Positions 10,064 to 28,082 of a stretch of DNA of 56,774 nt are shown here, piece after piece. The stretch lies in IMG/VR virus record IMGVR_UViG_3300048998_000127, positions 1 through 56,774 of that record. The stretch is one strand, 5' to 3'. Under the pieces are notes generated by a model. That model was not told the DNA's origin. It was given only the letters and a program-made list of their open reading frames with translations, and searched no databases. This DNA comes from a virus. Lineage: Duplodnaviria > Caudoviricetes. The stretch's first letter is position 1. Every line of letters starts with the position of its first letter. The translations under genes and the position numbers were made by a program.

Positions 10064-10264
10064 TCACTCGTCTGCCGCTTCACGTTCCGCCCGGGTGCCC
10101 TGCCACGCCCCCACGTGCAGCCACGCGTTCGCGTACAGCGAGCACAGAGCCACCCACAGGACCGAGTCCTTCCACCACAGCGCGGTCGGCACGGCCAGCA
10201 CCACCCAGATGCCGGCCAACGCCAGGTGCAGGTTACCCAGCTTGCGGGCGGTCCGCTTGCTCAC
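10064..10264 (-). CDS. Small two-TM membrane protein
   Basis: GTGA overlap with protease stop; WWKDSVLWVALCSLYAN. Confidence 0.7.
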   Translation of the reverse strand: MSKRTARKLGNLHLALAGIWVVLAVPTALWWKDSVLWVALCSLYANAWLHVGAWQGTRAEREAADE

Positions 10265-13047
10265 GACGCGTGGCTCTTGGCCCGCTTCGCGTTCCAGTCC
10301 GCGACCGCAGAGCACGCCTCGGCCCGGCTGCCCGGGTTGACCTTCTGGAGGCCCGGGAAGTTCAGGTCGCCGGTGGCGCACATCTTCTTCGCCACGTTCA
10401 CGGCCGTCGCGATGGCCCGGCTCGTGTCCATGGCCTTCTTCTCCAGGTGCTTGCGGATGCGGTCGATGTACTTGGGCAGGCCGCCGGCCTTCTGCACCCA
10501 GTTCTGGGCGAAGGCGATGTCCGCGTCGGTCACCTCCCCGAAGTGCTCGCACAGCGCGGTGAACCAGGCGTCTGGGCCGGCGACATCCAGGAGGCGTTCG
10601 TGCAGCTCCTCCACGGTGGGGCCTTCGACTGCGACCGGCATGAGCGTCTCGCCGGTCAGCTGGGCGAACTGGACGGACAGCTTGCCGTACTCGGCCTGCA
10701 CGTAGTCATCGAGCACGGCCGACAGCCGGTCCATGTCGGCGGCCACCTGCCGGTGGTACTCCTGCCGCTCCAGCACCGCGTCCGCCAGGGCGGCCATGTC
10801 GAGCTTGCCGGACGCGGCCAGCTGCACCACCGGCTCCTCCCGCAGCACGCCACCGGCAACCAGCGCCATGGGCATACCGGAGGCGACGCGGGCACGCGGC
10901 ACCGGGAAGCCAGGCGTGTTCACGGACAGGACGGCCACCAGCTCCAGGTTGCCGCCGATGTTCCGCCAGTCGCCCGACGGCGGGGCCGCGACGAACTCGC
11001 GCAGCTGGGCCGGGGTGAGGTGGTCGCGCACCACGCCGGACACCCAGATGCCGAAGGCATCCTCGCCGCACACCACGTCCGCGCCGACGGTGCCGGTGTG
11101 GTCGTAGTGGGCGACGGCAGGCCTGGCCGCGAGTCGGTCGCTGGCGTGGCCGGTGCCGAAGGTGATGTGGCCGGTTCCGATGGGGCCGGCGTCGGTGAGC
11201 ACCTGGCCGGTGTGGAAGTAGGCGTACTTCGAGGCGCTGCGCGGGGCGGTGACACACTGGCCGCCGAAGCCGATGTGGCAGGTGCCCCAGGTGGCGATGT
11301 GGCCGAAGACGCGGCGCAGCGCCGGGCCGCCGGCCACGTCGGTGAAGGTGAGCGGCGTGGGGCTGGTCAGGTTGGGGTTGGCGAAGGCGGACGCCGGCAG
11401 CTTCGGGTAGGCGGCGGCGGTGACGCTGGGTGCGGTGCCGTCCAGTGGGTAGTCCGTGTGCTTGTTGCCGATGGCCACGCGCGCCTTGCTGAAGTTGACG
11501 GGGCCCATGCGGGTCAGCTTGCTCTGGGCGACGTTGTAGCCGGCGGTGATGTGCGGCTTGTACGGGCCGTGGCTGGGCGGCAGCTGCTTACCGACGGCCG
11601 CCAGCTTGGCATGCAGGTGGCCGGTGAGGTTGCTGTGCAGGGAGTGCAGCGCGCTGGAGTCGCCCAGGTCGTAGACGGTGGCCGGCTTCATGGTGCCTGT
11701 GGGGCCGCCGTCGGCGTTCCAGGTGGCGTGGCCCATGACGCGGGCCTTGATGCTGCGGCCCTGGCCGGGCGGCAGTGGATTGTCCGGCGCAGCCCCGCCA
11801 GCGGCCCGGACAGATGTGGGGTCTGCGCCGCCTTCTACCGTGGAATCGTCGGCGGACTGCTCGTCGACGGGGTCGCCACCGTGGTTGTGGCCGGCGAGCG
11901 CGGCCGTCACCGCCTCGTGCACGGCATCCACCTGCTGCGGCGACCACTGGTCCAGGTCGTCGCCCAGGTAGGCCAGGGTGCAGTGCATCTCATCGGCCGG
12001 GTCACCGCCGTCCACGGCGAACGACTCCGGGTCATCGGGCACCAGCGCGATCATGCCGCTGTTGTCGTAGGCCGGGTTGCCGGCGGCCTTCAGGTCCTGC
12101 TCCCACGGTGCGACCTCACCGATCCGGCGGGCCAGGGCGGCGGCCACGGCCATGGTGGCGGAGTCGGCCACGGGCGTCTTCTCGGCGGCGGCGTCGGCCA
12201 GGCGGGTCACGTTGCGGCGCACCAGGTCGGGCACCAGGTGGTACTGGCCTTCGGCGTCGACACGAGCCATGCGCATGGCGTGGTAGTTCTCGCCGTCGAT
12301 GTCGTGCAGCAGCCAGCCGCGCGGGTCGTGGTCGGGACCGTCGGCCAGCTCCGCCCCGGGGTCGGCCACGGGCAGCCCGATCAGCTCACGCAGGGCTGGC
12401 GCGGCCTTGCCGGCGAGGCACGGCGAGCACGCGTCGCCCAGGTCGCTGGAGCGCCACATGGGCGTCATCGAGGCGGTCAGGCCGACAGCGGGTGCGATCG
12501 ACTCGCCATCGAGCACGACGTACGCATCCGGGAAGGCGGGCAGGCCTACCAGCGTGGTGGCCCCGATGACGCCGGAGGTCATGCGCATCTGGCCGGGGTC
12601 GTCAGGGTTGTCGTCGGCCATCACCACCTGGGCGTCGACGGCGGACAGGTCCACGCTGTTGCCGGACAGCGCCCCGTCCTTGACCATGCGGTAGGCGGGC
12701 ACGTCGGTGTACATCCAGCCCTTGCCGGACCAGACGGCCACGTCGTCGGGGAACGGCTGGCCGGTGGACTTGGAGGTGACCTCGCTGCCCGGCCGTCGGG
12801 TGAGCTCGGTGAGCGCCCCGACGATGTCCGCACCATCGTGGCCTTGGCCGCCTTCGGGGGTGCGGGTCTGGGCGTAGATGGTGAGCGGCACGGCCCGGTG
12901 GGTGAGCGCGCCCTGTTCGATGAAGCGGCGGTCGGCGGTCTCCATGCCTTCGAGGGCGAGGACGGGGAACTCGATGGGGACCGCGTTCTCCGGGATGGAG
13001 GTGTCGGCCGGCTGCCCGGTGATGGGGTTGAGCGTCGGGGCGGTCAT
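10261..13047 (-). CDS. Capsid maturation protease, multidomain, with embedded 2H phosphoesterase
   Basis: Follows portal; N-terminal protease-like domain (EGMETADRR...GHDGADIVG); second protease-like domain (GHIATWGTCH...SGDWR..LELVAVLSVNTPGFP); HCT and HIT motifs in between. Confidence 0.85.
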   Translation of the reverse strand: MTAPTLNPITGQPADTSIPENAVPIEFPVLALEGMETADRRFIEQGALTHRAVPLTIYAQTRTPEGGQGHDGADIVGALTELTRRPGSEVTSKSTGQPFPDDVAVWSGKGWMYTDVPAYRMVKDGALSGNSVDLSAVDAQVVMADDNPDDPGQMRMTSGVIGATTLVGLPAFPDAYVVLDGESIAPAVGLTASMTPMWRSSDLGDACSPCLAGKAAPALRELIGLPVADPGAELADGPDHDPRGWLLHDIDGENYHAMRMARVDAEGQYHLVPDLVRRNVTRLADAAAEKTPVADSATMAVAAALARRIGEVAPWEQDLKAAGNPAYDNSGMIALVPDDPESFAVDGGDPADEMHCTLAYLGDDLDQWSPQQVDAVHEAVTAALAGHNHGGDPVDEQSADDSTVEGGADPTSVRAAGGAAPDNPLPPGQGRSIKARVMGHATWNADGGPTGTMKPATVYDLGDSSALHSLHSNLTGHLHAKLAAVGKQLPPSHGPYKPHITAGYNVAQSKLTRMGPVNFSKARVAIGNKHTDYPLDGTAPSVTAAAYPKLPASAFANPNLTSPTPLTFTDVAGGPALRRVFGHIATWGTCHIGFGGQCVTAPRSASKYAYFHTGQVLTDAGPIGTGHITFGTGHASDRLAARPAVAHYDHTGTVGADVVCGEDAFGIWVSGVVRDHLTPAQLREFVAAPPSGDWRNIGGNLELVAVLSVNTPGFPVPRARVASGMPMALVAGGVLREEPVVQLAASGKLDMAALADAVLERQEYHRQVAADMDRLSAVLDDYVQAEYGKLSVQFAQLTGETLMPVAVEGPTVEELHERLLDVAGPDAWFTALCEHFGEVTDADIAFAQNWVQKAGGLPKYIDRIRKHLEKKAMDTSRAIATAVNVAKKMCATGDLNFPGLQKVNPGSRAEACSAVADWNAKRAKSHAS

Positions 13048-15782
13048 GCCGTCACCTTCCCTGAGATGAAGCGCTGCTGGAGTCGCTGTATGTGGTCGTG
13101 GCGGTCACGGAGTGTTTGCGCGGTGGTGCCGTTGCGGCCGGCGGCGTCATCGAGGTCGGCCAGCCGGATGATGTTGGTCATGTCGGTGCCGGGGGTGGCG
13201 AGCGCTTCGCGGACGGTCTGGCTGTAGCGGGGCACGGCGTAGGCGGGGACGGTGTCGCACATGCAGCCGTGGTGGTCGCCGGGGTGCATGTGGTCTCCGA
13301 GCCATTCGTAGCCGGGTGGCGGGTTGAGCTGGGCGTCTGACCAGTTGGCGAAGCGGATGCCTTCGATGTGCCGGTGGGGCTCGAACTGGTCGGGGGCGAG
13401 GGTGACGCCGTACACCCACAGGTGGCCGAGTTCGACGGCACCGGCGGTGTCGAGCTCCTGTTGCACGGTGTGGCCGTTGGCGAGGCCGGTGGCGTTGCTG
13501 GTGGCCTTGCCGTTGGTGTTGACGTGCGTTCCGGGCTGGGTGCCGCCGATGTCGGCGAGGACCGCGCGGATGGTGCCGGGTTGCACGGTGGTGTCCGCGA
13601 GGTCCGAGGGGCTGGGCTTGTGTTCCCCGTACAGGACCTTGTCCGCCAGGTCGTGCAGGGTGCCTTCCAGTCGGTCCCAGCCGTCATCGACGCGGGCGGC
13701 CATGGTGCGGCGGACGCGTTCGGTGAGGTCTCGGTGTTCGCGGGTGCCGCTGCGGAGTCCGAGCATGGTGGCGAGCTTGCTGACGATGGCGTCGACGGCG
13801 GCGAGGGTCCACTTGGTGAACTTGACCTGGAGGCCGGCGAAGGCACCGGCGAGCAGGAAGTCCGTGGTGGCCCCGGCGGTGAGCGCACGGTCTCGGCCGA
13901 TGACCTGGCCGAACTGGTGGGGTCCGCACTGGCGGAGCTGGCCGATGAGCTGGTTGTCTCCGGACAGCTTGGCGCGCAGTCGGCTGGACGCCTTGGCCAC
14001 GGCCTGCTGGAGCGCGGCATCGGCGGCGGTGACGAGGCGGTCACGCAGGGTGCGCTCGATCTCCACCATGTCGCGCATCTCGGCGAAGGTGAGCCGGTAC
14101 TCCTCGTCGCCGTCGACGGTGGCGGCGGCCATGAGGGCGAAGCGCTGGTACAGCTCGTGGAGTCCGCCGTCGGCGCTCACGCCGGTGGGCGGGGCGGGTG
14201 CGCTGCCACCCTCCTTCGGCGTGCCGGGCGACAGGGCGGGCGGCGTGCTGGTGCTCCCAGCGGGCAGAGCCGGCGCTCCGGGCGTTCCCGGCTTCTCGGT
14301 GATGGTCTCGCGCTCTGGGATGACCGGCGTCTCGCCAGGGACCAGGAGGCGCTGGATGAGCTGGCCGGCGGTGATCGGGTCCAGGCCGATCTTGAACAGG
14401 GCCATGAGAAGCATCTCGTGCTCCTCCGGCTTGTCGGTGTCGGAGAAGCCCAGCGCCTCGCGGAACGCGTCCCAGCCGATGCCGCCCCGGTCGAAGGCGT
14501 CGATGGCGTCCTGTCGCCGGTTGGTGTTCTCCGTGATGTTGGCGGCGTCGTACCAGACGCGGATCTTGCGCACCTCGGCCGGGTCGTAGCCCATGTCGAT
14601 CAGGGTCGTGCGCAGGAAGGCCACGGTGAGGCTGTCGACCATGCGCCGGACGCTGGGCTCGATGTGGTAGCGGAAGGTGCTGGCGTCGATCTGCCATGCC
14701 GACCAGTGGTTGGCGTCGCCCACGCCGGACACGACCTCCGGCGGCAGATCGAGGCCGCGCGCCATGCGGGTGAGCTCCCGGTCCACCTTGCCGCCGAGGT
14801 CGGCCGACGACTCGCGCTCGAAGGTGATGTGCCGGATGGCCTTGATGTCCTCTTCGCTACCGGTGAGGACGGCGGGGGCAACGGCTCCGGCGTCACCCTC
14901 GTTGGTGATGGGGGCGAGCAGGACGGCGGTCAGGTCGGCCATGAAGTTGTTGGACTGCGCGGCCGTGACCCCGTCGTCCCCATCCTCGCGGATGTTGCGC
15001 ATGAGGGTCATGGTGTTGGGGATGGCCAGGATGCCGTTGGTGGCCGACCGGGATCGGCTCACGGCGCGCAGCTCACGCCCGAACAGGACGATGTTCTCGA
15101 ACGTGTCCAGGGTGGCCTGGCAGGGCGAGTCGGCCAGGTAGCCTTCCCGGGGGTGCTGCACCCACAGGCGGAACAGCTCCTCCGTTTTCCAGTCCACGTC
15201 ACGGTCGGTGCCCGGGTTGACGTCGGACTGGACCTTCACGGTGCGGCCGTCGGGCGAGACTTTGACGCCGTCGATGGAACGGATGCGCCAGGTCTCCTCG
15301 CCCGTGTCCGGGTCCGTGAAGCCGTGCAGCCAGCAGTCCCCGGCGATGTCGAAGTTCTCCGACCAGATGCCCAGGAAGCTGAAGCCATCGTCGATCGGCA
15401 GGCGGTTGAGGTTGTCGATGGCGGCCCGGGCCAGGTCGTGGTCCACGGTGACCTGGTGCGCCTTGTCGGGGTCGTCGATGAGCGACAGCGGAACCGGCTT
15501 ATCGTCGTCGCCATCGATCTGGGCGGCGTACAGCCGCACCCGGCTGATGGCACCGGACCGGTAGCCGGTGGCGAAGCGCAGCTCCGGGATGAGATCCCGA
15601 TACTTCCACGCCAGGGACTGCCACTCGCGACGGGCGACAGCCAGCACGCGCAACGCCTGCGCGTTGGTGGCGGGCTGCACGCGCATGCCGGCGGCCCGCA
15701 GCTGGGCGACGTGATGGGACTTGCCGGGCTCCACGACTTCGTGGCGGCGGAATCCTTCAGCGGCGGAGGTGACCACGGCCAC
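13044..15782 (-). CDS. Portal protein fused to C-terminal MuF-like head morphogenesis domain
   Basis: W..Y...PELRFA, RLWVQHP...ADSP, RMARGLDLPPEVVSGVGDANHWSAWQI portal motifs; C-terminal HPGDHHGCMC. Confidence 0.88.
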   Translation of the reverse strand: MAVVTSAAEGFRRHEVVEPGKSHHVAQLRAAGMRVQPATNAQALRVLAVARREWQSLAWKYRDLIPELRFATGYRSGAISRVRLYAAQIDGDDDKPVPLSLIDDPDKAHQVTVDHDLARAAIDNLNRLPIDDGFSFLGIWSENFDIAGDCWLHGFTDPDTGEETWRIRSIDGVKVSPDGRTVKVQSDVNPGTDRDVDWKTEELFRLWVQHPREGYLADSPCQATLDTFENIVLFGRELRAVSRSRSATNGILAIPNTMTLMRNIREDGDDGVTAAQSNNFMADLTAVLLAPITNEGDAGAVAPAVLTGSEEDIKAIRHITFERESSADLGGKVDRELTRMARGLDLPPEVVSGVGDANHWSAWQIDASTFRYHIEPSVRRMVDSLTVAFLRTTLIDMGYDPAEVRKIRVWYDAANITENTNRRQDAIDAFDRGGIGWDAFREALGFSDTDKPEEHEMLLMALFKIGLDPITAGQLIQRLLVPGETPVIPERETITEKPGTPGAPALPAGSTSTPPALSPGTPKEGGSAPAPPTGVSADGGLHELYQRFALMAAATVDGDEEYRLTFAEMRDMVEIERTLRDRLVTAADAALQQAVAKASSRLRAKLSGDNQLIGQLRQCGPHQFGQVIGRDRALTAGATTDFLLAGAFAGLQVKFTKWTLAAVDAIVSKLATMLGLRSGTREHRDLTERVRRTMAARVDDGWDRLEGTLHDLADKVLYGEHKPSPSDLADTTVQPGTIRAVLADIGGTQPGTHVNTNGKATSNATGLANGHTVQQELDTAGAVELGHLWVYGVTLAPDQFEPHRHIEGIRFANWSDAQLNPPPGYEWLGDHMHPGDHHGCMCDTVPAYAVPRYSQTVREALATPGTDMTNIIRLADLDDAAGRNGTTAQTLRDRHDHIQRLQQRFISGKVTA

Positions 15783-17427: not shown

Positions 17428-17630
17428 TTCCTCTTCGGTCGGACGTACTCATGCATGAGCATGACGGCCACGGCGGCCAGGTCGTTCGGGTCGATCGTCA
17501 GGGCGTCGCCATCCTCGTTGTGCAGGGTGAGCGGCTCCCCGTCTTCGTGGTCTTCGAGGTAGTAGCCGCGCTCCTCGGCCGCCGGCCTGTACCAGTGCTG
17601 CTCGAAGTCGCGGCCCTTGGCGGACATCAC
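17424..17630 (-). CDS. Hypothetical protein
   Basis: Overlapping start/stop chain. Confidence 0.65.
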   Translation of the reverse strand: MMSAKGRDFEQHWYRPAAEERGYYLEDHEDGEPLTLHNEDGDALTIDPNDLAAVAVMLMHEYVRPKRK

Positions 17631-17725
17631 GCCCCGTCCGGGTGGGGTCGGTCGTCGTCCGGGCCGTTCATGCGGTCGTTGAGCTCGAAGGTTTCGGCCA
17701 ACTCGATGTAGTCGATGTCCGTCAT
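17627..17725 (-). CDS. 32-aa acidic peptide (likely leaderless)
   Basis: MTDIDYIELAETFELND...; ATG 6 nt after the -10. Confidence 0.55.
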   Translation of the reverse strand: MTDIDYIELAETFELNDRMNGPDDDRPHPDGA

Positions 17726-17731
17726 GTGTCT

Positions 17732-17760
17732 ATCTAACCCCACGAGACGGTGGGTGTCAA
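17732..17760 (-). promoter_or_regulatory. Promoter with palindromic spacer
   Basis: TTGACA-CCCACCGTCTCGTGGGG-TTAGAT; 25 nt identical to the 24741-24765 promoter region. Confidence 0.75.
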
Positions 17761-17772
17761 CACCTGCGGGCA

Positions 17773-17843
17773 AACGAAAGGCCCAGGGGGTCCGGTCGTC
17801 TGGACCGGTGCTCGCCGCCATGTAGCACCCCTGGGCCTTCGTT
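17773..17843 (-). terminator. Terminator-like stem enclosing two hairpins, ends the ncRNA cluster
   Basis: GGCCCAGGGG/CCCCTGGGCC followed by TTTCGTTT. Confidence 0.6.
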
Positions 17844-17975
17844 GTGCAGGTCCGCCACGCGGTGCGGATCCCTGCGAGCTCTACCCGTTCGGCGGAGGCC
17901 CGCCAGGTCCCTCCCGACTTCGATCTCTCCGGGCCTTCCTGGTGGCATATCCGCGCGTAGCGGCGCGTGTGCCCT

Positions 17976-18043
17976 GCGGGTGAGCGGGACTCGAACCCAG
18001 CACCTCCCCTACGCGGGGGCTCTGCCAATTGAGCTACCACCCT
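17976..18043 (-). tRNA. tRNA-like RNA 1 (non-canonical anticodon arm; identity not assignable)
   Basis: GGGTGG/TCACCC acceptor, TAGCTCAATTGGCAGAGC D arm, GGGTTCGAGTCCC T arm; anticodon arm CCCC-GCGTA-GGGG. Confidence 0.7.
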
Positions 18044-18047
18044 GTTC

Positions 18048-18132
18048 GGTGCCCGCCAGCCCTCTACTAGTCCCCGGTTCCCGGTTGCGAGGCCGGTACT
18101 AAGGGGAGTGTTCAAGGGCCGGTCGGGGCACC
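18048..18132 (-). ncRNA. Structured rod with two AGUA/GAA bulged-G motifs
   Basis: Four stacked helices; internal loops UAGUA/GAAC twice. Confidence 0.6.
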
Positions 18133-18178
18133 CGGCGGCTGGCTATCGTGACCCGCCGGCCACGGCTCCTACCGCCTT

Positions 18179-18250
18179 GCGTGGTGCCGGGGACGCGAAC
18201 CCCGGATCTCCCGGCCTGAACCGGATGCTCTGCCGTTGAGCTACACCACT
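18179..18250 (-). tRNA. tRNA-like RNA 2 (6-nt anticodon loop UUCAGG)
   Basis: GTGGTG/CACCAC acceptor, TAGCTCAACGGCAGAGC D arm, TCCGG-TTCAGG-CCGGG, CCGGGG-TTCGCGT-CCCCGG. Confidence 0.75.
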
Positions 18251-18354
18251 CCACCTGGTCGCCAGACGTAGCTGGCCCTGGGAGTTTGTTCCGGCCCGGT
18301 CGTTGCGAGCGAGTCACGGCATGGTTGCCGCCGGGCCGGTGGTCTTCACCTGTC

Positions 18355-18384
18355 AACCTACACACCGCCGCTACAGGCTGTCAA
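18355..18384 (-). promoter_or_regulatory. SigA-type promoter of the ncRNA cluster
   Basis: TTGACA-N18-TAGGTT. Confidence 0.7.
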
Positions 18385-18643
18385 CGCCTTCCGGCAGCAG
18401 CACCACCAGAGGGAAGGGAACATCCCACAGCTTGACCTTCAGGCCCAGCAGCAGGGCACCGTCGAAGCCGTTCGGGTAGCTCATCGGGACCAGCAGCTGC
18501 CATCGCAGGTACGGCGATACGTACGGACGTAGGTGGTAGACCTGCATGGCCGCCGTGACAGCAGCGTGCATCTCCTGCGCGTTGGCCCCGATGCCGGCCC
18601 CGCATGCCGCCCACATCTGGTCCAGGACGTCGTCCGTGCTCAC
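18371..18643 (-). CDS. Hypothetical protein
   Basis: GTGA overlap; VSTDDVLDQMW. Confidence 0.65.
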   Translation of the reverse strand: MSTDDVLDQMWAACGAGIGANAQEMHAAVTAAMQVYHLRPYVSPYLRWQLLVPMSYPNGFDGALLLGLKVKLWDVPFPLVVLLPEGVDSL

Positions 18644-19098
18644 CGGGGCCACCAGTCGGGCAGGGTGTCGAAGTCGGGCCGCCAGTCGACAGGCAGCAGC
18701 GACGGCAGGAGCACCGGCACGTACTCCGGCAGCGGCACCTTCCCGTAGTGCATGGACCACGGACGGTGGCGCACCCCCAGGTTGAGGTCATCGAAGGTGC
18801 GGTCGACGCTCTCGCTAAGGCCGCCGCCCTTGATCACCAGCTTGGTGTAGAGCGTGAGCCTGGAGAAACACCACGGGCTGCGCTCGGTCACGATCTGTCG
18901 CGGGTCGCCCCGGTGCGCCGCCCAGCGGGCCCGCAGGTGGATGGGCCGCCAGGTGCGCGGCCTCTTGCTGCTGTCCCAGTCCAGCATCGTGATGTCGGGC
19001 CGGCCGGCCAGCGAGCGCGTGACGTACAGGTTGACGGACAGCTCGGATCCGATGGTCTCGACCAGCTCTGACGGCTGGACGGTCAGGTCGTCGCTCAC
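18640..19098 (-). CDS. Hypothetical protein
   Basis: GTGA overlap; VSDDLTVQPSEL. Confidence 0.65.
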   Translation of the reverse strand: MSDDLTVQPSELVETIGSELSVNLYVTRSLAGRPDITMLDWDSSKRPRTWRPIHLRARWAAHRGDPRQIVTERSPWCFSRLTLYTKLVIKGGGLSESVDRTFDDLNLGVRHRPWSMHYGKVPLPEYVPVLLPSLLPVDWRPDFDTLPDWWPR

Positions 19099-19415
19099 TG
19101 GGCGTCCCACGTCTTGCTCGACTCCTTCGTCAGGGTGTTCCGCTCCGCGCGGGCCAAGCTGCGGACGGCGGGTCGGCTGCTGTGCAACGCGCCCTCCACC
19201 GTGCTCCACAGGCCCGCCATCGGGTGCGGCATGGTCTTGGTGCTGCCCTTGCGGGTGAAGCCGTGCCCGCCCATCCTGAAGGGCGTCGCGACCCGCTGCG
19301 ACCCGCTCACGCGTCGCATCCGGCGGCCGTCCGTGGTGGACGATGCCGTGGTCCCGATCCGTGCCATTGGTCCGATCCTTTCCGTCGGGGTGCCGGACCC
19401 GGTGAAGTCCAGCAC
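19095..19415 (-). CDS. Hypothetical basic protein
   Basis: GTG immediately after promoter 19420-19449. Confidence 0.6.
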   Translation of the reverse strand: MLDFTGSGTPTERIGPMARIGTTASSTTDGRRMRRVSGSQRVATPFRMGGHGFTRKGSTKTMPHPMAGLWSTVEGALHSSRPAVRSLARAERNTLTKESSKTWDAQ

Positions 19416-19419
19416 CCCT

Positions 19420-19449
19420 ATTCAATCCCACCGCGACGGTGGGTGTCAA
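19420..19449 (-). promoter_or_regulatory. Promoter with palindromic spacer
   Basis: TTGACA-CCCACCG-TCG-CGGTGGG-A-TTGAAT. Confidence 0.75.
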
Positions 19450-19452
19450 CCC

Positions 19453-19656
19453 CTACTTGCTGATGCCACTGTGCGTGAACCCGCAGCAACGGCAGGTGTT
19501 CGGCTTCGTGCTGGTCGGGTCACACGCGCAATCGCACTTCCAGCACACCACGAGATCCGTGCTCAGGTGCTCGCACTCGCACTTGCAGGCGATCGTGACC
19601 CCGTTGCGCTTGGTGGTCAGCGGCTGCCCGGAGCGGCCCACGTAGCGTCCGGTCAC
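19453..19656 (-). CDS. Cys-rich microprotein
   Basis: CKCEC...CWKCDCAC...CRCC (10 Cys in 67 aa). Confidence 0.65.
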   Translation of the reverse strand: MTGRYVGRSGQPLTTKRNGVTIACKCECEHLSTDLVVCWKCDCACDPTSTKPNTCRCCGFTHSGISK

Positions 19657-19844
19657 ATCGGCACCCCCGTTCGCTCCCATCGCTCACGCTGTTCGTTGGC
19701 GTACTCGTTCGCAGCACCCAGGGCATCCGTCCAGCGCCGGAAGCCCTGGGTCTTGTCCAGGTTGTGAGGCCCCGGGTCCACCCGGCCGTAACGACCGAAC
19801 ATCCAGTGCCCGGTCAGGCGGTTCTTCCACACGGCCGGCTTCAT
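19653..19844 (-). CDS. Hypothetical protein
   Basis: Overlap chain. Confidence 0.65.
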   Translation of the reverse strand: MKPAVWKNRLTGHWMFGRYGRVDPGPHNLDKTQGFRRWTDALGAANEYANEQRERWERTGVPM

Positions 19845-20095
19845 GGCCAGGTGATCTCGAACGTGCGGGGGCCGATCTTGTCCACGTCCCCGGCGTTGCT
19901 GACGACCCGCTCCAGAACCCTGCGCGCGCTCTCCATGTCGCCCTCCTTCTGGATCTTCACGCGGGTGATGATCGGCTTGCCCGGCTGCGAGTTGAGCGAC
20001 TCGATGGCCACGATGACGGCGGAGAGGGCACCGCGAACCAGCTCGTTGGCGGCCAGGGTGTGCTTGGGTGCGGTCACCTCCAGGTCACCTCCCAT
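19841..20095 (-). CDS. Hypothetical protein, 4th of tandem V/I-x-W set
   Basis: Ends FEITWP. Confidence 0.7.
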   Translation of the reverse strand: MGGDLEVTAPKHTLAANELVRGALSAVIVAIESLNSQPGKPIITRVKIQKEGDMESARRVLERVVSNAGDVDKIGPRTFEITWP

Positions 20096-20328
20096 GTGCG
20101 GGTGGACGACTTACGGACGCCGCTGGCCTTGGTGGTGAAGATGGCGAGTGCGCGGCCGGCCTGCTCCTGCTGGTTGTCGTGCGCGATGGTCACCGTGGTC
20201 ACCCACGGGTCCTCCGGCAGGCCTCGGCCGGTCCGGATGGTCATGCTGTGCACCGTGGGGATCCGAGCGTCGGACAGCACCCGCTCCACGGCGGCCGTGG
20301 CGGCCGTGAGGGTCTTCGGCTTGCTCAT
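20074..20328 (-). CDS. Hypothetical protein, 3rd of tandem V/I-x-W set
   Basis: MSKPKTLT...WEVTWR. Confidence 0.7.
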   Translation of the reverse strand: MSKPKTLTAATAAVERVLSDARIPTVHSMTIRTGRGLPEDPWVTTVTIAHDNQQEQAGRALAIFTTKASGVRKSSTRTWEVTWR

Positions 20329-20329
20329 G

Positions 20330-20578
20330 TCACCACTCCACGTCGATGAGGTTGGACGAGCCGGCTCGCTGTGCCCGCTTGCAGGCGGTGCCGGCGTTGA
20401 TGGCGTGCACCGCCTTGCCCATGGTCTTAGGGTCGTTGTCGCGGATGTACACGTCGGTGACGACCCCGGCCCGTGTCGACCTGCTTTCAACCTGTGTGTA
20501 TGCGACGCCGCTACTCCGCAGGGCGGTCTTGATGCTCTGGGTGGCCAGCGTCGGCGTGATGGGCTGTTGGCGGCTCAC
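20330..20578 (-). CDS. Hypothetical protein, 2nd of tandem V/I-x-W set
   Basis: Ends IDVEW. Confidence 0.7.
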   Translation of the reverse strand: MSRQQPITPTLATQSIKTALRSSGVAYTQVESRSTRAGVVTDVYIRDNDPKTMGKAVHAINAGTACKRAQRAGSSNLIDVEW

Positions 20579-20841
20579 CAGCGCACCATCGCGCCCAGCT
20601 TGCCGTTCTGGGTGATGGTGGCGCTGTCGCCGCCGCGCGCACGGCGCAGGGCGGTGGACAGGTCGGCGTAGTCGAAGCGCTGACCCGACCTCATGGTCAC
20701 CTCCGTGATGGTCACCAGGTTGCCGTCACCGTCTTCCCTGGCCTTGGTGCGGACGCTGCCCGTGATGCCGGCGGCGGACAGGGTTGACAGGACCTCCTGG
20801 TCGGCTCGCTGCTCGATGAGCCGCAGCTCTCCAGCCTTCAT
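20575..20841 (-). CDS. Hypothetical protein, 1st of tandem V/I-x-W set
   Basis: GGAGGG RBS; MKAGEL...AMVRW. Confidence 0.7.
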   Translation of the reverse strand: MKAGELRLIEQRADQEVLSTLSAAGITGSVRTKAREDGDGNLVTITEVTMRSGQRFDYADLSTALRRARGGDSATITQNGKLGAMVRW

Positions 20842-20931
20842 GGTTGTTCCCTCCAGATGGTTAGTTGTACGTAGCAACCTATGGCGCCGCTTGGCTTCCC
20901 CTGCTCACCGGGCGGCCTGGCTTGTGCCCCA

Positions 20932-20959
20932 CCGGGGCCGGCGGGTGGCCGGCCCCCGG
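20932..20959 (-). terminator. Hairpin terminator
   Basis: GGGGCCGGC-N5-GCCGGCCCC stem just after a stop codon. Confidence 0.55.
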
Positions 20960-20966
20960 GTCGAGC

Positions 20967-21227
20967 TCAGGAGTTGAACTCCACCTGGCGCTTGGCCAGC
21001 TCATGGGAGAAGGCGGTGAAGCCGATGCGCTCCAGCTCCTCCGGGGAGCACTTCACGGTGGCCTTCTTCAGGTCGGCCAGGCGGGCGGCCCAGTCGCTGA
21101 CCCGGGTCTTCAGGGCCGCGATACCGGCCTTGCTGGCCAGCAGTTCCGGCTCGGCCTGCTGCGCCTGCCGGCGGCCCTCCTTCTCTGCCTGGGCCATGAG
21201 CCGCTTAGCGTCGATGATCTCGACCAT
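20967..21227 (-). CDS. Hypothetical coiled-coil protein
   Basis: CACTTGGAGG RBS; MVEIIDAKRL. Confidence 0.75.
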   Translation of the reverse strand: MVEIIDAKRLMAQAEKEGRRQAQQAEPELLASKAGIAALKTRVSDWAARLADLKKATVKCSPEELERIGFTAFSHELAKRQVEFNS

Positions 21228-21325
21228 GATGTCCTCCAAGTGTTTCGGTGCCTTGCTGATATGAACTACTCTACCCCCCGGGGCGGTGGGTGTCTACCCC
21301 TCCCGCCCCGGTTCACCCGATCGGC
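21228..21325 (-). promoter_or_regulatory. Repeated promoter cassette C7
   Basis: TAGACA-N17-TAGAGT; CCGGGGCGG/CCGCCCCGG inverted repeat around the -35; TATCAGCA; CACTTGGAG. Confidence 0.8.
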
Positions 21326-21742
21326 TCAGCTGTTCAGGCTGCGGGCCTTCGTGCGGGGCATCGCCATGGCCAGGGCCCGACCGTCCTTCCCCGCCGGAGC
21401 GTCGTCGGACAGGAAGGTCACCATGGTCTTCGTCAGCTTCGTGATGGTGCCGTAGACGGTGCCGCCGATGGTGCTCACGATGATCCGGCCGCCCACCTCG
21501 AAGGTGTCCAGAGCCGGCCTGGCCGCCTTCTGGCCGGCCAGCGTCTTCGGGGCCTCGATGCCCAGGATGCGGCAGCAGTCCTTGCAGGTGACCGGGGCGT
21601 CCGTGACGGAGAAGGTGGCTTCCGCGATCTCGTAGCTGGTCCGGTGATCGCGCCGCATGTTGGAGCAGAGGACCGGGTTGCGGTCGGTGGTGCTGGGAGC
21701 GTGGACTACGGTCCCGTTCTTGGCTACCAGGTTCTTCGTCAT
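21326..21742 (-). CDS. Hypothetical protein (H...C...CxxC Zn domain plus SH3-like C-terminus)
   Basis: VVH...VLC...VTCKDC; FEVGGRII. Confidence 0.75.
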   Translation of the reverse strand: MTKNLVAKNGTVVHAPSTTDRNPVLCSNMRRDHRTSYEIAEATFSVTDAPVTCKDCCRILGIEAPKTLAGQKAARPALDTFEVGGRIIVSTIGGTVYGTITKLTKTMVTFLSDDAPAGKDGRALAMAMPRTKARSLNS

Positions 21743-21841
21743 TTCGACTCCCAAGTGGTTCGTTCTCTTGCTGACAAGAGAAACATTACCGGACGGGGCG
21801 GTGGGTGTCAACAGCTACCCACCGCCAATCCGCCGGTTCAC
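21743..21841 (-). promoter_or_regulatory. Repeated promoter cassette C8
   Basis: GGCGGTGGGT/ACCCACCGCC around TTGACA; TAATGT; TTCTCTTG-TCAG-CAAGAGAA; CACTTGGGAG. Confidence 0.85.
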
Positions 21842-22120
21842 TCAGAAGGAGTACTCCAGCTCCATCATCCAGTCCCGGGCGTCCAGCATGTTCGGGTGAC
21901 CCCCGGGGGTGGGGTACACACGACCCGTCTGGCAGTCCAGGACACCGCGCGAGGTGACGGGGATGACCGCGAACCGGCGACCCTGACGGGCCCTGTGCGC
22001 CTCGGCCATGATCACGTTGGCGTCCGCGTCGGCGGGCAGCTTGCCCAGGGTGATCATCCGGCTGACGAACTGGCGGCCGTCTTCCGAGTGAATGCCGGCC
22101 AGGTTCTGGTTCTTGCCCAT
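21842..22120 (-). CDS. Hypothetical protein
   Basis: GACTTGGGAG RBS. Confidence 0.75.
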   Translation of the reverse strand: MGKNQNLAGIHSEDGRQFVSRMITLGKLPADADANVIMAEAHRARQGRRFAVIPVTSRGVLDCQTGRVYPTPGGHPNMLDARDWMMELEYSF

Positions 22121-22221
22121 GTCGCTCTCCCAAGTCCTGCGGTGTGTTTCCCTGACATGGAGAACACTACCGGTGCGGTGGGCAGCTTGTCAATAGCTAC
22201 CCACCGCACCACCCGAACGGA
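22121..22221 (-). promoter_or_regulatory. Repeated promoter cassette C9
   Basis: 16-bp inverted repeat (one mismatch) 22172-22210 with loop ATTGACA; TAGTGT. Confidence 0.85.
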
Positions 22222-22467
22222 CTAGTACGCCTCCAGCGACTCCCAGTCCAGGCCCAGCGCCTTCGCCAGCTCCACGCCCTTGGCCGTGAAGTACGCGAAG
22301 ACGCAGCCCCGGTCCGCCTGGGTGGTGAGCAGGCCGGCCTTCTTCAGGTCGGTCAGGTTGCCCTTCTGCTCCCGGCTGACCTCCACGATGGGGGTTCCGG
22401 ACCAGTTGCCGGCGTCGTCGACCAGCGAGCGGAACAGCTTCGCGGACTCGGGCGTCAAGGTGATCAT
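22222..22467 (-). CDS. Hypothetical winged-helix-like protein
   Basis: GNLTDLKKAGLL...FTAKG. Confidence 0.75.
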   Translation of the reverse strand: MITLTPESAKLFRSLVDDAGNWSGTPIVEVSREQKGNLTDLKKAGLLTTQADRGCVFAYFTAKGVELAKALGLDWESLEAY

Positions 22468-22565
22468 CGGGGGCTCCAAGTTGTGTGGCGGGTTTTGCTG
22501 ACACCACAAACGTTAATCGGTGGGGCGGTGCGTGTCAACACCTACCCACCGGATCACTCGAATAG
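22468..22565 (-). promoter_or_regulatory. Repeated promoter cassette C10
   Basis: TTCGAGTG, TTGACA-N17-TAACGT, TGTCAGCA, AACTTGGAG; near-identical to C6. Confidence 0.85.
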
Positions 22566-22575
22566 AGCAATCCCA

Positions 22576-22604
22576 TTGACACCCACCGCGCGAGTGGGTA
22601 ACTT
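22576..22604 (+). promoter_or_regulatory. Divergent promoter facing antisense into minus-strand genes
   Basis: TTGACA-CCCAC-N7-GTGGG-TAACTT. Confidence 0.65.
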
Positions 22605-22607
22605 CAG

Positions 22608-22895
22608 TCATGGTGGAGAAGGTTCTCCGTAGGCGTCAGGTCCCTTGGTCCACACTTCCAGCACTGCCGTGCTGACACCCGGCGAGTCCGTAGGCTCCGC
22701 GAACAGTTGCAGCACCGCATCACCCGTGATCGTCACCGATGACGGCATGTACAGCGCACCGCCCACGATGCGGTACTTGCCCGCCTCGCCGTACACGGCC
22801 AGATCGACCACCGCGTCCGCAGCGTCAGGCGTCCCGTCCAGCAGCGCATTCAGATCCCGCACCAGCGCACCCAGCGTGATGGGATGGCCGATCAC
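22608..22895 (-). CDS. Hypothetical protein
   Basis: GTGA overlap; ITLGALVRDL. Confidence 0.65.
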   Translation of the reverse strand: MIGHPITLGALVRDLNALLDGTPDAADAVVDLAVYGEAGKYRIVGGALYMPSSVTITGDAVLQLFAEPTDSPGVSTAVLEVWTKGPDAYGEPSPP

Positions 22896-23296
22896 TCCGA
22901 CCCCTCGGACCACTCCTGAACGGCGGCGGCCACGATGCGGCGAGCCGCGTAGCGTTCGGCCCGGCTGGAGCTGTTGGCCTTGGCGAGCACCCCGCAGATC
23001 ACCTCGAACTTGTCGTCGTCCACAGCCTCCCACAGCTGCGCCAGGGTGATCTGATGGGACAGCGGCGGGGCCTCCGACGGCTCGCCTCCTGCGGCCTGCT
23101 CGGAGGCCCGTTCCGCCTCCACAACACGGGCGGCCAGGGGCACCACGCACAGGCCGTTGATGGTGCCCGGGCCGTGCTCCTGACAGTCGCCGTTGTGGTC
23201 GAAGCGGCACGGCTCATCGCCGCCGCAGTAGTCGACGAACATCTCCAGGCAGTCCAGCGCGGACGGCAGGGCGGCCGGCGGCAGGTCTCGGCTCAT
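22892..23296 (-). CDS. Hypothetical protein (start could extend to 23410)
   Basis: GAAGGA RBS; CRFDHNGDCQEHG...C motif. Confidence 0.7.
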   Translation of the reverse strand: MSRDLPPAALPSALDCLEMFVDYCGGDEPCRFDHNGDCQEHGPGTINGLCVVPLAARVVEAERASEQAAGGEPSEAPPLSHQITLAQLWEAVDDDKFEVICGVLAKANSSSRAERYAARRIVAAAVQEWSEGSE

Positions 23297-23406
23297 GTCC
23301 TTCTCCCTTGGGTGGTAGGCCACGGCCGGCTGGCCGGTGACCGCGAGTAGGGCGAGGTGCGCTCGCCGGGATTCATCCCAGGCGAGCACACCTCCAGCGT
23401 TGTGGA

Positions 23407-23598
23407 TCACGAACCGATGGCCTTGCGGTCCATGATGTCGTTGCCGTGCTTCGGGCACTTGCCGCCGCGCAGGGCCCGGCCGCAGCTGGCCCCCACAACC
23501 TGCTTCACGCTGGTCGTCTTGGTTGTTCCGGGCACGGCCACACGTCCACGGGCCACGACGGCCTCGCGGTAATAGCACACGGTCTGATTTGCCGGCAT
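23407..23598 (-). CDS. Small Cys/His protein
   Basis: C...CG....KCPKHG. Confidence 0.6.
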   Translation of the reverse strand: MPANQTVCYYREAVVARGRVAVPGTTKTTSVKQVVGASCGRALRGGKCPKHGNDIMDRKAIGS

Positions 23599-23599
23599 G

Positions 23600-23758
23600 T
23601 CACTGTCCCCTTCGGACTTCGATCTTGATCGGCGGGTCGCCCTTCGCTCCCGCGTTCACCCAGTCGATGACCCGCTGCGTCTCCCACGGGTCGCACCCGT
23701 GGATGGAGCAGGAGCCAGGCGCGTCGTACAGCACGACCCACTTGACTGGGTCGCCCAT
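23600..23758 (-). CDS. Hypothetical small protein
   Basis: Hand-translated MGDPVKWVVLYDAPG...; TGATG overlap. Confidence 0.55.
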   Translation of the reverse strand: MGDPVKWVVLYDAPGSCSIHGCDPWETQRVIDWVNAGAKGDPPIKIEVRRGQ

Positions 23759-23928
23759 CACACGTGCCCGTTCATGATCTTGTGCAGCAGGGCACCCTCA
23801 CAGGTCTTGCCGCAGGTGTTGGATCCTCGCCGAGCCGGCTTGCGCTTGCAGTTGGCGCACTTCTCCATCGCCTCGCGCGCAGCCTGCACCTTGGCCACGG
23901 CCTTTCTCGCTCCACCGATGATCTTCAC
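23758..23928 (-). CDS. Small C4 zinc-finger-like protein
   Basis: CANC...CGKTC. Confidence 0.6.
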   Translation of the reverse strand: MKIIGGARKAVAKVQAAREAMEKCANCKRKPARRGSNTCGKTCEGALLHKIMNGHV

Positions 23929-24512
23929 GATGTCGTCCCCTTCGCGTTTTTGATCTCCGTCCACCGCCGGGCAGCCTCGCCCAGATACCAGCGGTGGACC
24001 TTGTCTTCATCCCCGGCGGCCATCAGCTCGCCGGGCGGACGCAGGCGTTGCCGTGTCAAGTCGTACGACAGCGCCTGTTCCGTCTCGCGGTAGTTCACCG
24101 GCGCGGTCGGCAGGTCGGCCGCCGCGCACAGCCCCGGCATGTCGAAGCGTCGCCAGGGCGCTTTGCTCGTGAGGTGGTGATGGCCGTCGCGGGTGCGGGG
24201 GCAGAGGTACGGGTACTGCCGCCCTTCGCCACGTCGGTACAGCTCTTCGGCCGCCTTGGAGGCCGCAGCCCAATCGTCGTAGATGACCTTGCCGACGCTG
24301 CCCATGTCCGCCACTTCGCCGCGCACCTCCGCGTTGGACGGACGGCACACCATGATGTTGCCGTCTCGCGGCGTGCCGGTGGCCAACTTCCGGGCGTGCT
24401 TCGAGATGACCTGTCGCCGCTCGCCGGCCGCCCCTTCGCTGTGCAGGGCCTTGGCCAGCTTGGCGAACGACGCCAGGCGGCGGCCGTTGCGCTCTGGCGT
24501 TCTCCTACCCAT
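23925..24512 (-). CDS. Hypothetical protein
   Basis: GGAGGG RBS; YPYLCP...HHHLTS motif. Confidence 0.7.
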   Translation of the reverse strand: MGRRTPERNGRRLASFAKLAKALHSEGAAGERRQVISKHARKLATGTPRDGNIMVCRPSNAEVRGEVADMGSVGKVIYDDWAAASKAAEELYRRGEGRQYPYLCPRTRDGHHHLTSKAPWRRFDMPGLCAAADLPTAPVNYRETEQALSYDLTRQRLRPPGELMAAGDEDKVHRWYLGEAARRWTEIKNAKGTTS

Positions 24513-24729
24513 GATCCACATCCCTCCAGAACTCGATGTCCCGCCAGTCGTCGCCCTCGGCTCGAAGCGCGGCCTGGACCTCCTGCTCCTGCCAGAACGC
24601 GTACGCCCCGTCCTCGCAGCACAGCTCCAGCTCTGTGACGGAGAGGTGCCGGCAGGCGTCCGGGTGGTCGTACCCGTTGGCGCACGGTCCGCTGATCAGT
24701 GTGTTGGTCTCCATGAGTGGCGGCTGCAT
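24505..24729 (-). CDS. Hypothetical acidic protein (likely leaderless)
   Basis: ATG 6 nt after TTGAAT. Confidence 0.65.
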   Translation of the reverse strand: MQPPLMETNTLISGPCANGYDHPDACRHLSVTELELCCEDGAYAFWQEQEVQAALRAEGDDWRDIEFWRDVDHG

Positions 24730-24735
24730 ATGACC

Positions 24736-24764
24736 ATTCAACCCCACGAGACGGTGGGTGTCAA
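24736..24764 (-). promoter_or_regulatory. Promoter with palindromic spacer
   Basis: TTGACA-CCCACCGTCTCGTGGGG-TTGAAT. Confidence 0.75.
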
Positions 24765-24800
24765 CCCCTGCCCCGGGGAAGTGGAGCAGGGGTTGACGGT

Positions 24801-25043
24801 CTACTTCCGGACGTCGACCCTGTGAGGCACAGGGCCGATGTCCGTCAGGGAGATCTGGGCCAGCGCGATGTGGGCTTCGATCATGCGCATCGACATGCCC
24901 AGGGACTGCATCTCCAGCTCACTGGGAATGTAAGGCCCGCTGATCATTTGCCGTCGGCGCTCCAGCCATGCTTCCACCTCCTGAAGCTGGGTGTCCGCGA
25001 TGGCGTAGTTCTCCCCCGGCGTCCGCACGTCGCGCACAGTCAT
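24801..25043 (-). CDS. Hypothetical protein
   Basis: Overlap chain. Confidence 0.65.
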   Translation of the reverse strand: MTVRDVRTPGENYAIADTQLQEVEAWLERRRQMISGPYIPSELEMQSLGMSMRMIEAHIALAQISLTDIGPVPHRVDVRK

Positions 25044-25132
25044 CGGACCACCACCTGGTGCATCCAGGCGAGGCCGGTCGCCGTCAGCACGGCGGCCGAG
25101 GCGAGCAGCACCAGCCGGCGAGCCGCGCTCAC
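25040..25132 (-). CDS. 30-aa TM peptide
   Basis: VSAARRLVLLASAAVLTATGLAW; overlaps both neighbours by 4 nt. Confidence 0.5.
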   Translation of the reverse strand: MSAARRLVLLASAAVLTATGLAWMHQVVVR

Positions 25133-25533
25133 TGATCGTCGTCCGGCAGCTGGACGCCCAGGGTGTGGAGCGCCTGGGTCCAGCTGCTGATCTTGCGCTC
25201 CGCAGTGAGGCAGCGCTTCTTCCAGAAGGCCACCTGCTCCTCCAGGGCGTCCAGCCTCTTCAGCCGCTTGGACACCACCGACAAGGCGTCCTTGCCAGTG
25301 GGCGTTCGCTTCTGCTTGTCCGGATCGGCATGCACCCGCAGGTGTGGCCGGATGGCACCGACCTTCGTGGCTGTGTGGTCGCAGTGCTTGCAGCCGTAGA
25401 TGACGGAGCCGTCCTCCAGCGTGAGCGTGCGGGTCTGCTCCCACCAGATGGCCTTGCCGTTGGGCGTCCGGATCGGGGCCAGGGTGGCGGTGTCGGTCCT
25501 CACCTTGATCCCGTTCACTTCGGTGGCTGTCAC
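25129..25533 (-). CDS. C2H2 zinc-finger plus coiled-coil protein
   Basis: YGCKHCD...IRPHLRVH. Confidence 0.75.
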   Translation of the reverse strand: MTATEVNGIKVRTDTATLAPIRTPNGKAIWWEQTRTLTLEDGSVIYGCKHCDHTATKVGAIRPHLRVHADPDKQKRTPTGKDALSVVSKRLKRLDALEEQVAFWKKRCLTAERKISSWTQALHTLGVQLPDDDQ

Positions 25534-26945: not shown

Positions 26946-26974
26946 TGCCCTTTCCTCTCGCTCGCTATATGGCG

Positions 26975-27003
26975 AAGGTACCCAGCGTCTAGGTGGGTGT
27001 CAA
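26975..27003 (-). promoter_or_regulatory. Promoter
   Basis: TTGACA-CCCA..TGGG(N17)-TACCTT. Confidence 0.7.
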
Positions 27004-27054
27004 TGAGTACTGGCCGCCGCCCAGGTCTCGACTGCACCGGGCGGCGGCCAGCGG

Positions 27055-27614: not shown

Positions 27615-27620
27615 GCGTCA

Positions 27621-28060: not shown

Positions 28061-28082
28061 CGTTGGCTCGTGTCCCATGGGG

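Follow-up and report, generated by a model that had tools for sequence, protein, structure and literature searches.

The IMG/VR virus record IMGVR_UViG_3300048998_000127—a complete virus record of 56,774 bp with direct terminal repeats and 65–71% G+C, analysed here at full length and referred to as the window—carries two tRNA-like elements on its minus strand, at 18250..18178 (copy 2, module ‘a’) and 18043..17975 (copy 1, module ‘c’), both of which fold as tRNA cloverleaves. They sit in a 928-bp stretch (17712-18639) in which no open reading frame (ORF) on either strand passes a GC3 coding filter. The gene for the portal protein (13044-15782) lies on the same strand, and some 12 kb of small ORFs separate it from the gene for the terminase large subunit (28083-30182).

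Comparison with related records identifies both elements as members of a small conserved family of non-decoding tRNA-like modules. The modules keep the acceptor stem, D arm, T arm and elbow of a tRNA, and an arbitrary hairpin or unstructured sequence replaces the anticodon arm.

Architecture of the two modules

Both copies have a 6-bp acceptor stem, a canonical D arm, a UUCG-type T loop and a short, abnormal anticodon hairpin, and in neither is CCA encoded. Copy 2 begins with A, followed by the acceptor strand GUGGUG (18249-18244), UA and a D arm of GCUC-AACGGCA-GAGC. Its anticodon hairpin is UCCGG-UUCAGG-CCGGG, within which RNAfold closes one more pair to leave a 4-nt loop; then come AGAU, a 6-bp T stem (CCGGGG/CCCCGG) with the loop UUCGCGU, the acceptor strand CACCAC and a 3′ tail of G-C-A. 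The variable region is 4 nt long and the acceptor/T stack comprises 12 bp, split 6/6.

Copy 1 begins with A, GGGUGG and UA, has a D arm of GCUC-AAUUGGCA-GAGC and, in place of the 17-nt anticodon arm, a 4-bp stem with a 5-nt loop (CCCC-GCGUA-GGGG). Its 3′ part consists of AGGU, a T stem with a bulged U (GC(U)GGG/CCCGC), the loop UUCGAGU, the acceptor strand UCACCC and, again, a G-C-A tail. Positions 1:72 form an A × G mismatch in both copies, each with six continuous acceptor pairs, and modules of the c type have only 6+5 pairs plus the terminal mismatch; the canonical 7-bp acceptor with a paired 1:72 is seen in neither window copy.

ARAGORN calls copy 2 only, as Leu-cag. In a 1-kb search with the Rfam tRNA model (RF00005, gathering score 29 bits), copy 2 scored above the gathering score (37.3 bits, E 4.9e-6) and copy 1 below it (27.6 bits, E 0.0024). 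No transfer-messenger RNA (tmRNA) was found in the window by ARAGORN, and each module closes its own acceptor stem locally, unlike the end-pairing of tmRNA.

Related records and the module family

Relatives were retrieved with the portal protein from IMG/VR and JGI metagenomes. Portal identity to the window is 80% for L007, 76% for L093 and 57–59% for L002, L003, L006 and L011, with a further set at 36–51%; L004, which repeats the L003 sequence, and L005 were left out of the counts. Odd tRNA-like elements were found with ARAGORN and Rfam in L002, L006, L007 and L011, 2–3 kb upstream of the portal gene, and some of the ARAGORN calls in relatives carry ‘anticodons’ of two or four bases (four in two L007 modules).

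A covariance model of the top half only, built from 11 aligned elements (model R1), gives 65.4 bits to copy 2 and 68.4 bits to copy 1. In the window and six related records it recovers 12 modules (E ~5e-17 to 7e-11), 11 of them distinct, the L093 module being the same as L007c: two in the window, three in L007, two each in L002 and L006, and one each in L011, L003 and L093. The next best match in 386 kb of relatives reaches 23.4 bits (E 0.01), and in four whole relative genomes R1 finds modules at this locus only. All six clade records that cover the locus keep modules, at 57–80% portal identity. Judged by these matches, recurrence at the same locus in six related records is more than chance.

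The family belongs to a small clade, the window plus six distinct records. More distant portal relatives (L008–L020, 36–51% identity) have no module at E < 0.01 and lack S_A, the spacer RNA described below, and a DNA search of window 17600-18700 against GenBank phages gave no match. Scanning IMG/VR with the S_A core pattern returned 11 stretches, of which four are known relatives and seven were judged on reading to be chance matches, while a scan with the c-type 3′ half plus trailer returned three known relatives only. The exact 24-base 5′ half of copy 1 has 11 matches in species genomes; the six loci scanned hold ordinary tRNA-Ala or tRNA-Lys genes plus one odd call, in Planctomycetota, Saccharibacteria and others, and these matches are uninformative on ancestry or host.

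Two further observations concern tRNA-like sequences in the relatives. L018, a more distant relative, has at 692-805, about 9 kb upstream of its portal gene, a tRNA-like element of 109 nt whose 7-bp acceptor is perfect and whose T arm is canonical, but whose middle is very long and odd; ARAGORN makes no call there and R1 gives it 23.4 bits. In L003, a lone T-arm-like hairpin (GGGGUUCGACUCCC, 7390-7420) lies downstream of the single module, without a recognisable acceptor or D arm.

Conservation of the top half

Standard pairs fill 90.9% of pair cells in the R1 alignment, compared with 38–48% in slid controls, and both sides have changed in nine of the 15 pairs; none of 500 shuffles reached the observed values, the alignment itself being model-fitted. 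Acceptor and T stems covary among modules. Between copy 2 and its orthologue L006a, compensatory changes occur in one acceptor pair and two T-stem pairs.

Elbow nucleotides are kept throughout: G18, G53, U54, U55, C56 and C61 in all 11 distinct modules, G19 in ten, and U8, A14 and A58 in nine. The acceptor end also has a signature common to all 11: G never occurs at position 1, a purine always occupies position 72 and C always follows at 73. Position 1 is A in seven, U in two and C in two, and position 72 is G in seven and A in four, leaving 1:72 mostly mismatched.

The middle of the molecule behaves quite differently. The stretch between D and T arms, 22–23 nt in class I tRNAs, spans 18–32 nt in the modules and differs in length, shape and sequence. 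Its hairpins have 4–10 pairs and loops of 4, 4, 5, 5, 5, 6, 7 and 8 nt, and three modules have no convincing hairpin. A canonical 5-bp anticodon stem with a 7-nt loop and U33 occurs in none of the 11 distinct modules; the sole 7-nt loop, GCAGGAG in L006a, stands on a 6-bp stem with C in place of U33. Among the c-type orthologues (copy 1, L007c, L006b and L011), the top halves are 83–94% identical, whereas the anticodon regions are 21–28% identical in four of five pairs (83% for L006b–L011). By this pattern of conservation, the cloverleaf top half is under selection and the modules are not dead tRNA genes.

Independent assemblies

A contig from another sample of the same soil study is identical to the window over 17916-18400. 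Contigs from a different study span copy 2 without gaps; four substitutions lie within its hairpin (18210, 18213, 18218 and 18220), turning U.G into U-A, G-C into G.U and the loop UUCAGG into CUUAGG; the stem and the short loop are retained and ‘UCA’ becomes UUA. Copy 1 is covered by two low-depth contigs of relatives that contain a few gaps at unlisted positions. In the soil runs, ordinary tRNAs of other organisms appear as high-depth contigs; they match the top half of copy 1 at 80% or more, and their anticodon regions are longer by about seven bases. Because ordinary soil tRNAs resemble copy 1 in this way, the modules likely originated from real tRNA genes.

An earlier note on this DNA, made from its letters alone, had listed the structural peculiarities of both copies, and every detail is there when the minus strand is read. 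Its view that the deviations reflect selection rather than decay is borne out by relatives at 57–80% portal identity, which keep intact top halves and show compensatory pairing changes. Close relatives with a canonical tRNA at the locus, which the note had named as evidence against itself, were not found (0 of the 11 distinct modules). The independent soil assemblies carry the same short loops, and sequencing error as the source of the missing bases is therefore excluded.

The non-coding transcription unit

The modules are parts of one larger, conserved and structured non-coding transcription unit, about 18348..17768 on the minus strand and roughly 590 nt long, predicted to run from promoter to terminator. 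The promoter-like site (18355..18384, minus strand) consists of TTGACA (18384-18379), an 18-nt spacer and TAGGTT (18360-18355); its −35 element overlaps the end of the upstream ORF, the stop codon of which is at 18373-18371. By regular-expression (regex) search, a promoter-like site occupies the matching position in five of six units, where mononucleotide shuffles lead one to expect about 0.006 per unit. Downstream lies a leader hairpin (18291..18339, minus strand; CCGGCCCGG...CUCGCUCGCAAC...CCGGGCCGG), for which RNAalifold on five sequences predicts 14 pairs, four of them with compensatory changes.

Between modules a and c lies S_A, a spacer RNA of 129 nt (18048..18176, minus strand) with two domains. 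Domain 1 is a hairpin with an invariant CCGGCGGG apex; domain 2, a long irregular hairpin, is interrupted by internal loops (GAACAC/CUAGUAG and UUAGUA/GAA) and capped by the apical loop CUCGCAA. Twelve of its 41 predicted pairs have compensatory changes, and 87.5% of cells are paired compared with 32–50% in slid controls. A model of S_A (R2) matches only the window, L007, L002, L093 (in part, at a contig end), L006 and L011. The same model found nothing in 155 actinomycete genomes (4 + 151), a weak negative as the first-look filter scored few candidates. By eye, S_A contains two AGUA/GAA internal loops resembling loop-E or S-turn motifs, and the leader hairpin (18339-18291) has a CUCGCAA loop like the apical one of S_A; these recurring features hint at a shared protein-binding or kissing-loop site.

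In the 3′ region of the unit (17843..17974, minus strand), a GC hairpin (CGCG..CGCG) is accompanied by a block, GGAAGGCCCGGAGAGAUCGAAGUCGGGAGGGACC, that L007 and L003 conserve. In BLASTN searches, window 17997-17895 is 75% identical to L003/L004 and window 18161-17722 is 76% identical to L007. The unit ends with a long, GC-rich terminator-like hairpin read by eye (17768..17842, minus strand; CGAAGGCCCAGGGG ... CCCCCUGGGCCUUUCG, then UUUGCCC). The hairpin recurs in L003, L006, L007 and L011, where its tail is UUCG(U/C)UU, and it forms in the minimum-energy fold.

Beyond the hairpin is a second promoter-like motif (17723..17760, minus strand), TTGACA, N17, TTAGAT, N6 and ATG, at the leaderless start of the portal block. 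The pattern TTGACA-N17-TTNRAT-N6-ATG follows the non-coding unit in six of six units (window, L002, L003, L006, L007 and L011), and the first ORF after it (32 aa, 17725-17627) is 77–88% identical in three relatives. The motif looks like the promoter of a leaderless mRNA.

Spacer modules are shared among relatives in differing order (L007 3455-3530, L002 7030-7170 and L006 6590-6650); the shared types are a hairpin followed by AAGUGGUCGG.GCAGCCUGCCGG and a hairpin with CUGCGUGAGG.GGGCCGCUC.CC...GGGUGACGCAG. Because these modules are shuffled between relatives, the arrangement suggests that the non-coding unit is a shuffled set of independent parts.

Comparison with known RNA families

Rfam holds no family for the unit: besides tRNA, only noise-level matches were obtained. 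We found no phage-encoded multi-module tRNA-like RNA with conserved spacers in Rfam or in the literature, a survey that leaves the phage lists in the supplement of PMC4201824 uncovered.

Of bacterial RNAs with a tRNA-like part we compared YrlA (RF02553). PMC4201824 describes YrlA RNAs of actinobacteria and mycobacteriophages as carrying a tRNA-like domain, and takes as one criterion a Ro60/TROVE gene no more than about 4 kb away on the same strand. It also reports that RNase P cleaves the tRNA-like domain of the Mycobacterium smegmatis YrlA in vitro and that this RNA receives CCA (PMC4201824); actinobacterial enzymes therefore do process tRNA-shaped substrates that are not tRNAs. Window 17600-18600 has no YrlA match at E ≤ 10, and L002 gives a weak one (18.3 bits, E 0.75; gathering score 69). 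The Ro-binding motif GNCGAAN0-1G, expected near the 5′ end of a YrlA, occurs in four of the six units (absent from L007 and L006) at positions that are not conserved and at a count near estimated chance. No TROVE/Ro60 gene (PF05731) was matched at E ≤ 1 across the whole 56.8-kb phage, a search in which control genomes did match, and the phage has no such gene near the unit. What YrlA and the phage unit have in common is non-coding RNA with a D/T/acceptor domain resembling tRNA, encoded by actinobacteria or their phages; the difference is that the acceptor-like stem of YrlA is a closed hairpin (permuted), whereas the phage modules end at the acceptor stem in normal tRNA topology, in a phage without a Ro60 gene, a significant model match or a conserved Ro-binding motif.

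In the mascRNA and MEN-beta elements of MALAT1 and NEAT1, a tRNA-like fold serves as an RNase P/RNase Z processing signal in a long non-coding transcript. The phage modules share with them a tRNA-like fold that lies in a non-coding transcript and is not for decoding; mascRNA, however, is eukaryotic and nuclear, with one element at the 3′ end, whereas there are one to three modules per phage unit and bacterial enzymes are implied. The mascRNA-menRNA model (RF01684) has no match in the window, and we rejected membership of that family because L007 modules, at 18.7 and 17.1 bits, fall far below the gathering score of 42.5.

A viral counterpart is provided by the TMERs of murine gammaherpesvirus 68, in which tRNA-like modules are joined to small structured RNAs, host tRNA-processing enzymes separate the two and the function is non-translational. 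Both systems are virus-encoded and join tRNA-like modules to other structured RNAs. TMERs differ in being animal-viral, with pol III promoters inside the tRNA-like part and pre-miRNA hairpins as partners, whereas the phage unit has a predicted sigma-70-type promoter, a predicted multi-module precursor and unrelated structured spacers.

In layout the modules match the engineered tRNA scaffold, in which arbitrary RNA replaces the anticodon arm and the remainder keeps the molecule processed and nuclease-resistant in bacteria; the scaffold, however, is a laboratory design, and no natural phage-encoded counterpart was found in the literature searched. Altered acceptor/T-stem splits are known from tRNA-Sec (8/5) and allo-tRNAs (8/4 and 9/3), recalling the 12-bp stack and unusual 6/6 split of copy 2, although those tRNAs decode with proper anticodon loops whereas the loop of the phage modules is not conserved. 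Assignment as a tRNA-Sec or opal suppressor, which would call for a conserved UCA in a 7-nt loop, a 13-bp acceptor/T stack and a long variable arm, was rejected because of the 4–6 nt loop, the non-conserved UCA and the 4-nt variable region.

The phage genome and its host

Gene families of tailed phages are present in the window (terminase large subunit, portal, MuF-like head protein, major head protein and DnaB-type helicase), together with RusA, an Erf-like annealing protein, an endolysin and a tail fibre protein, and with the standard bacterial code the long ORFs are uninterrupted. Searches of the phage revealed neither a tyrosine nor a serine integrase, nor a reverse transcriptase. Its portal matched 877 GenBank phage records, all at <60% identity and mostly Mycobacterium, Gordonia and Microbacterium phages. 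In bacterial genomes, prophage-like copies of the portal reach only 24–30% identity and sit in actinomycetes (Streptacidiphilus, Streptomyces, Rhodococcoides and others), and for that reason the host is probably an actinomycete. The window probably represents an uncultivated, high-GC soil actinophage, lytic-looking in its gene content.

The relaxed pattern TTGACN-N16-19-TANNNT has 13 sites in the genome (six on the plus strand and seven on the minus strand), and shuffles of the locus give ~0.006 per kb. Because the count is far above that of the shuffles, the phage seems to depend on host promoters of the SigA type.

The non-coding unit falls within the same small-ORF stretch between terminase large subunit and portal. 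Of the small ORFs in window 18640-28078 (minus strand), those searched gave no match to any family, and for most of them conservation is lacking even among relatives at 57–59% portal identity; the small ORFs neighbouring the locus belong to no PHROG or Pfam family. One clade-restricted ORF of 213 aa has, by eye, the look of a membrane protein. Adjoining the portal is the 928-aa MuF-like head protein (10261-13047, minus strand), in which an internal stretch (residues ~385-538) matches the ‘RNA ligase’ PHROG phrog_2659 (E 2.3e-18) and, weakly, Pfam 2_5_RNA_ligase2 (20.6 bits, cut-off 27). This ligase-like stretch may be a capsid-packaged domain that acts on RNA ends or cyclic nucleotides.

Discussion

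In every bacterium the top half of tRNA is read by RNase P, by RNase Z or the 3′ trimming enzymes, and by the CCA-adding enzyme. Because these read exactly the half that the modules keep, we favour, tentatively and at somewhat below even odds, a role as tRNA-shaped processing and stability tags: punctuation marks and a natural ‘tRNA scaffold’ rather than parts of translation. The earlier note had likewise proposed processing tags. On this model, host RNA polymerase would transcribe the unit as a single precursor, in which each module would fold like a pre-tRNA. Host RNase P would then cleave on the 5′ side of a module, and RNase Z or 3′ exonucleases would cleave on its 3′ side after the conserved purine-C, with CCA addition possible. 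The products would be stable tRNA-shaped RNAs with idiosyncratic hairpins, plus the structured 129-nt S_A.

Several observations count against such tags. The acceptor stem has 6 bp where 7 would be expected, and in most modules 1:72 is mismatched; PMC4201824 names a 7-bp acceptor stem as a major determinant for RNase P. T-loop position 58 is C, not A, in copy 2 and L006a, and covariation among paralogous modules could partly come from different ancestral tRNAs. The composition of the unit is also awkward, as L011 has S_A without a preceding module, so that two tRNA-type cuts cannot release it there, and L003 has a module and no S_A. The promoter and terminator of the unit were identified by eye and regex; a stricter consensus promoter scan found none at the unit, nor did a terminator rule requiring a loop of 3–8 nt. 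The fold of the whole unit surpasses that of shuffled sequences only modestly (z = −2.34, with three of 100 shuffles folding equally well). No CCA-adding enzyme was found encoded by the phage, and among the sequencing runs listed as carrying the locus there is no RNA run.

Ranked second, and in our judgement unlikely, is that matured modules act as top-half decoys or sponges, titrating a host factor that recognises the acceptor end or elbow of tRNA and not the anticodon. Its targets might be, for example, defence toxins that modify tRNA 3′ ends, such as DUF1814/AbiEii-MenT nucleotidyltransferases or toxSAS enzymes that pyrophosphorylate the CCA end. Such a role is compatible with the processing model and may perhaps be the reason for it: conservation is limited to the acceptor/T/D half, and the family-wide acceptor-end signature (positions 1, 72 and 73, 11/11) suggests selection on that end. 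Acceptor-end toxins are reported from actinobacteria and from phage defence (PMC10435456, PMC11541572, PMC7450476, PMC11559606); no particular toxin, however, is linked to the locus. Moreover, CCA is neither encoded nor, as far as was found, added by a phage enzyme, one or two copies per genome would be a small dose unless very highly expressed, and the conserved spacer RNAs are left unexplained. The earlier note had proposed decoys for anticodon nucleases, and this version is disfavoured, since the anticodon arm that such nucleases recognise is the least conserved part. A broader scheme appears less likely still, namely a scaffold operon whose CCA-tipped top halves would absorb acceptor-end defence enzymes while its variable hairpins and spacers would serve as further anti-host effectors. 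On the same strand the unit immediately precedes a terminator-like hairpin and the structural gene block, a position that would also suit a cis-acting leader of the late operon, in which RNA-mediated antitermination or 5′ stabilisation would serve the portal and head genes and the tRNA folds would be merely architectural. We consider this improbable: a separate conserved promoter motif, ending in a leaderless ATG, lies beyond the terminator in all six units, and the late genes therefore need no read-through, while the shuffling of module order and content among relatives fits independent parts better than a single cis fold.

The remaining explanations carry far less weight than the processing tags that we favour. 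A Y-RNA of the YrlA type would tether a host Ro60/Rsr protein to an exonuclease, and its tRNA-like domain, its occurrence in actinobacteria and mycobacteriophages (PMC4201824) and the weak match in L002 (18.3 bits, E 0.75) all point that way. We nevertheless regard it as very improbable, since no TROVE/Ro60 gene was found in the phage, the window has no match at E ≤ 10, the L002 score is far below the gathering score of 69, GNCGAAN0-1G is missing in two of six units and elsewhere not positionally conserved, and the topology is different. Decaying pseudogenes, or functionless remnants of tRNA genes acquired from a host, would agree with the true-tRNA origin that is likely from soil tRNAs at least 80% like the copy 1 top half, and with the low or sub-threshold scores of both copies on the Rfam tRNA model; this too has very little to recommend it. 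Compensatory changes within orthologous pairs (copy 2 and L006a, for example, in acceptor and T stems), a top half far more conserved than the anticodon region, modules in six of six clade records covering the locus at 57–80% portal identity and a conserved, structured non-coding neighbourhood all oppose it, and no integrase was found to account for a remnant of an att site. Simple pseudogene decay was rejected on covariation, top-half conservation and retention in relatives. Least credible of all are functional decoding tRNAs of odd shape, whether an opal suppressor reading through UCA in the copy 2 loop or frameshift suppressors with 8-nt loops, for which the 4-base ‘anticodons’ called by ARAGORN in two L007 modules might speak. 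Loops range from 4 to 8 nt, three modules have no hairpin, the only 7-nt loop (L006a) caps a 6-bp stem and has C at the U33 position, and the long ORFs show no interruption when the standard bacterial code is applied. The opal read-through raised in the earlier note was rejected outright: UCA becomes UUA in a natural variant and is absent from the orthologue in L006, where the loop is GCAGGAG.

Conclusions

Mimicry of tRNA as a processing signal is already known; what appears to be new here is a phage multi-module version with conserved spacer RNAs. Phage annotation sorts odd tRNA calls into tRNAs or junk, and this locus presents a third case: selected, non-decoding tRNA-shaped modules within a larger structured RNA gene that lacks an Rfam family. 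If the modules are excised by RNase P and RNase Z, they would be a bacterial-virus parallel to herpesvirus TMERs and mascRNA and a natural precedent for the engineered tRNA scaffold; if they are acceptor-end decoys, they would represent a new kind of RNA-based counter-defence.

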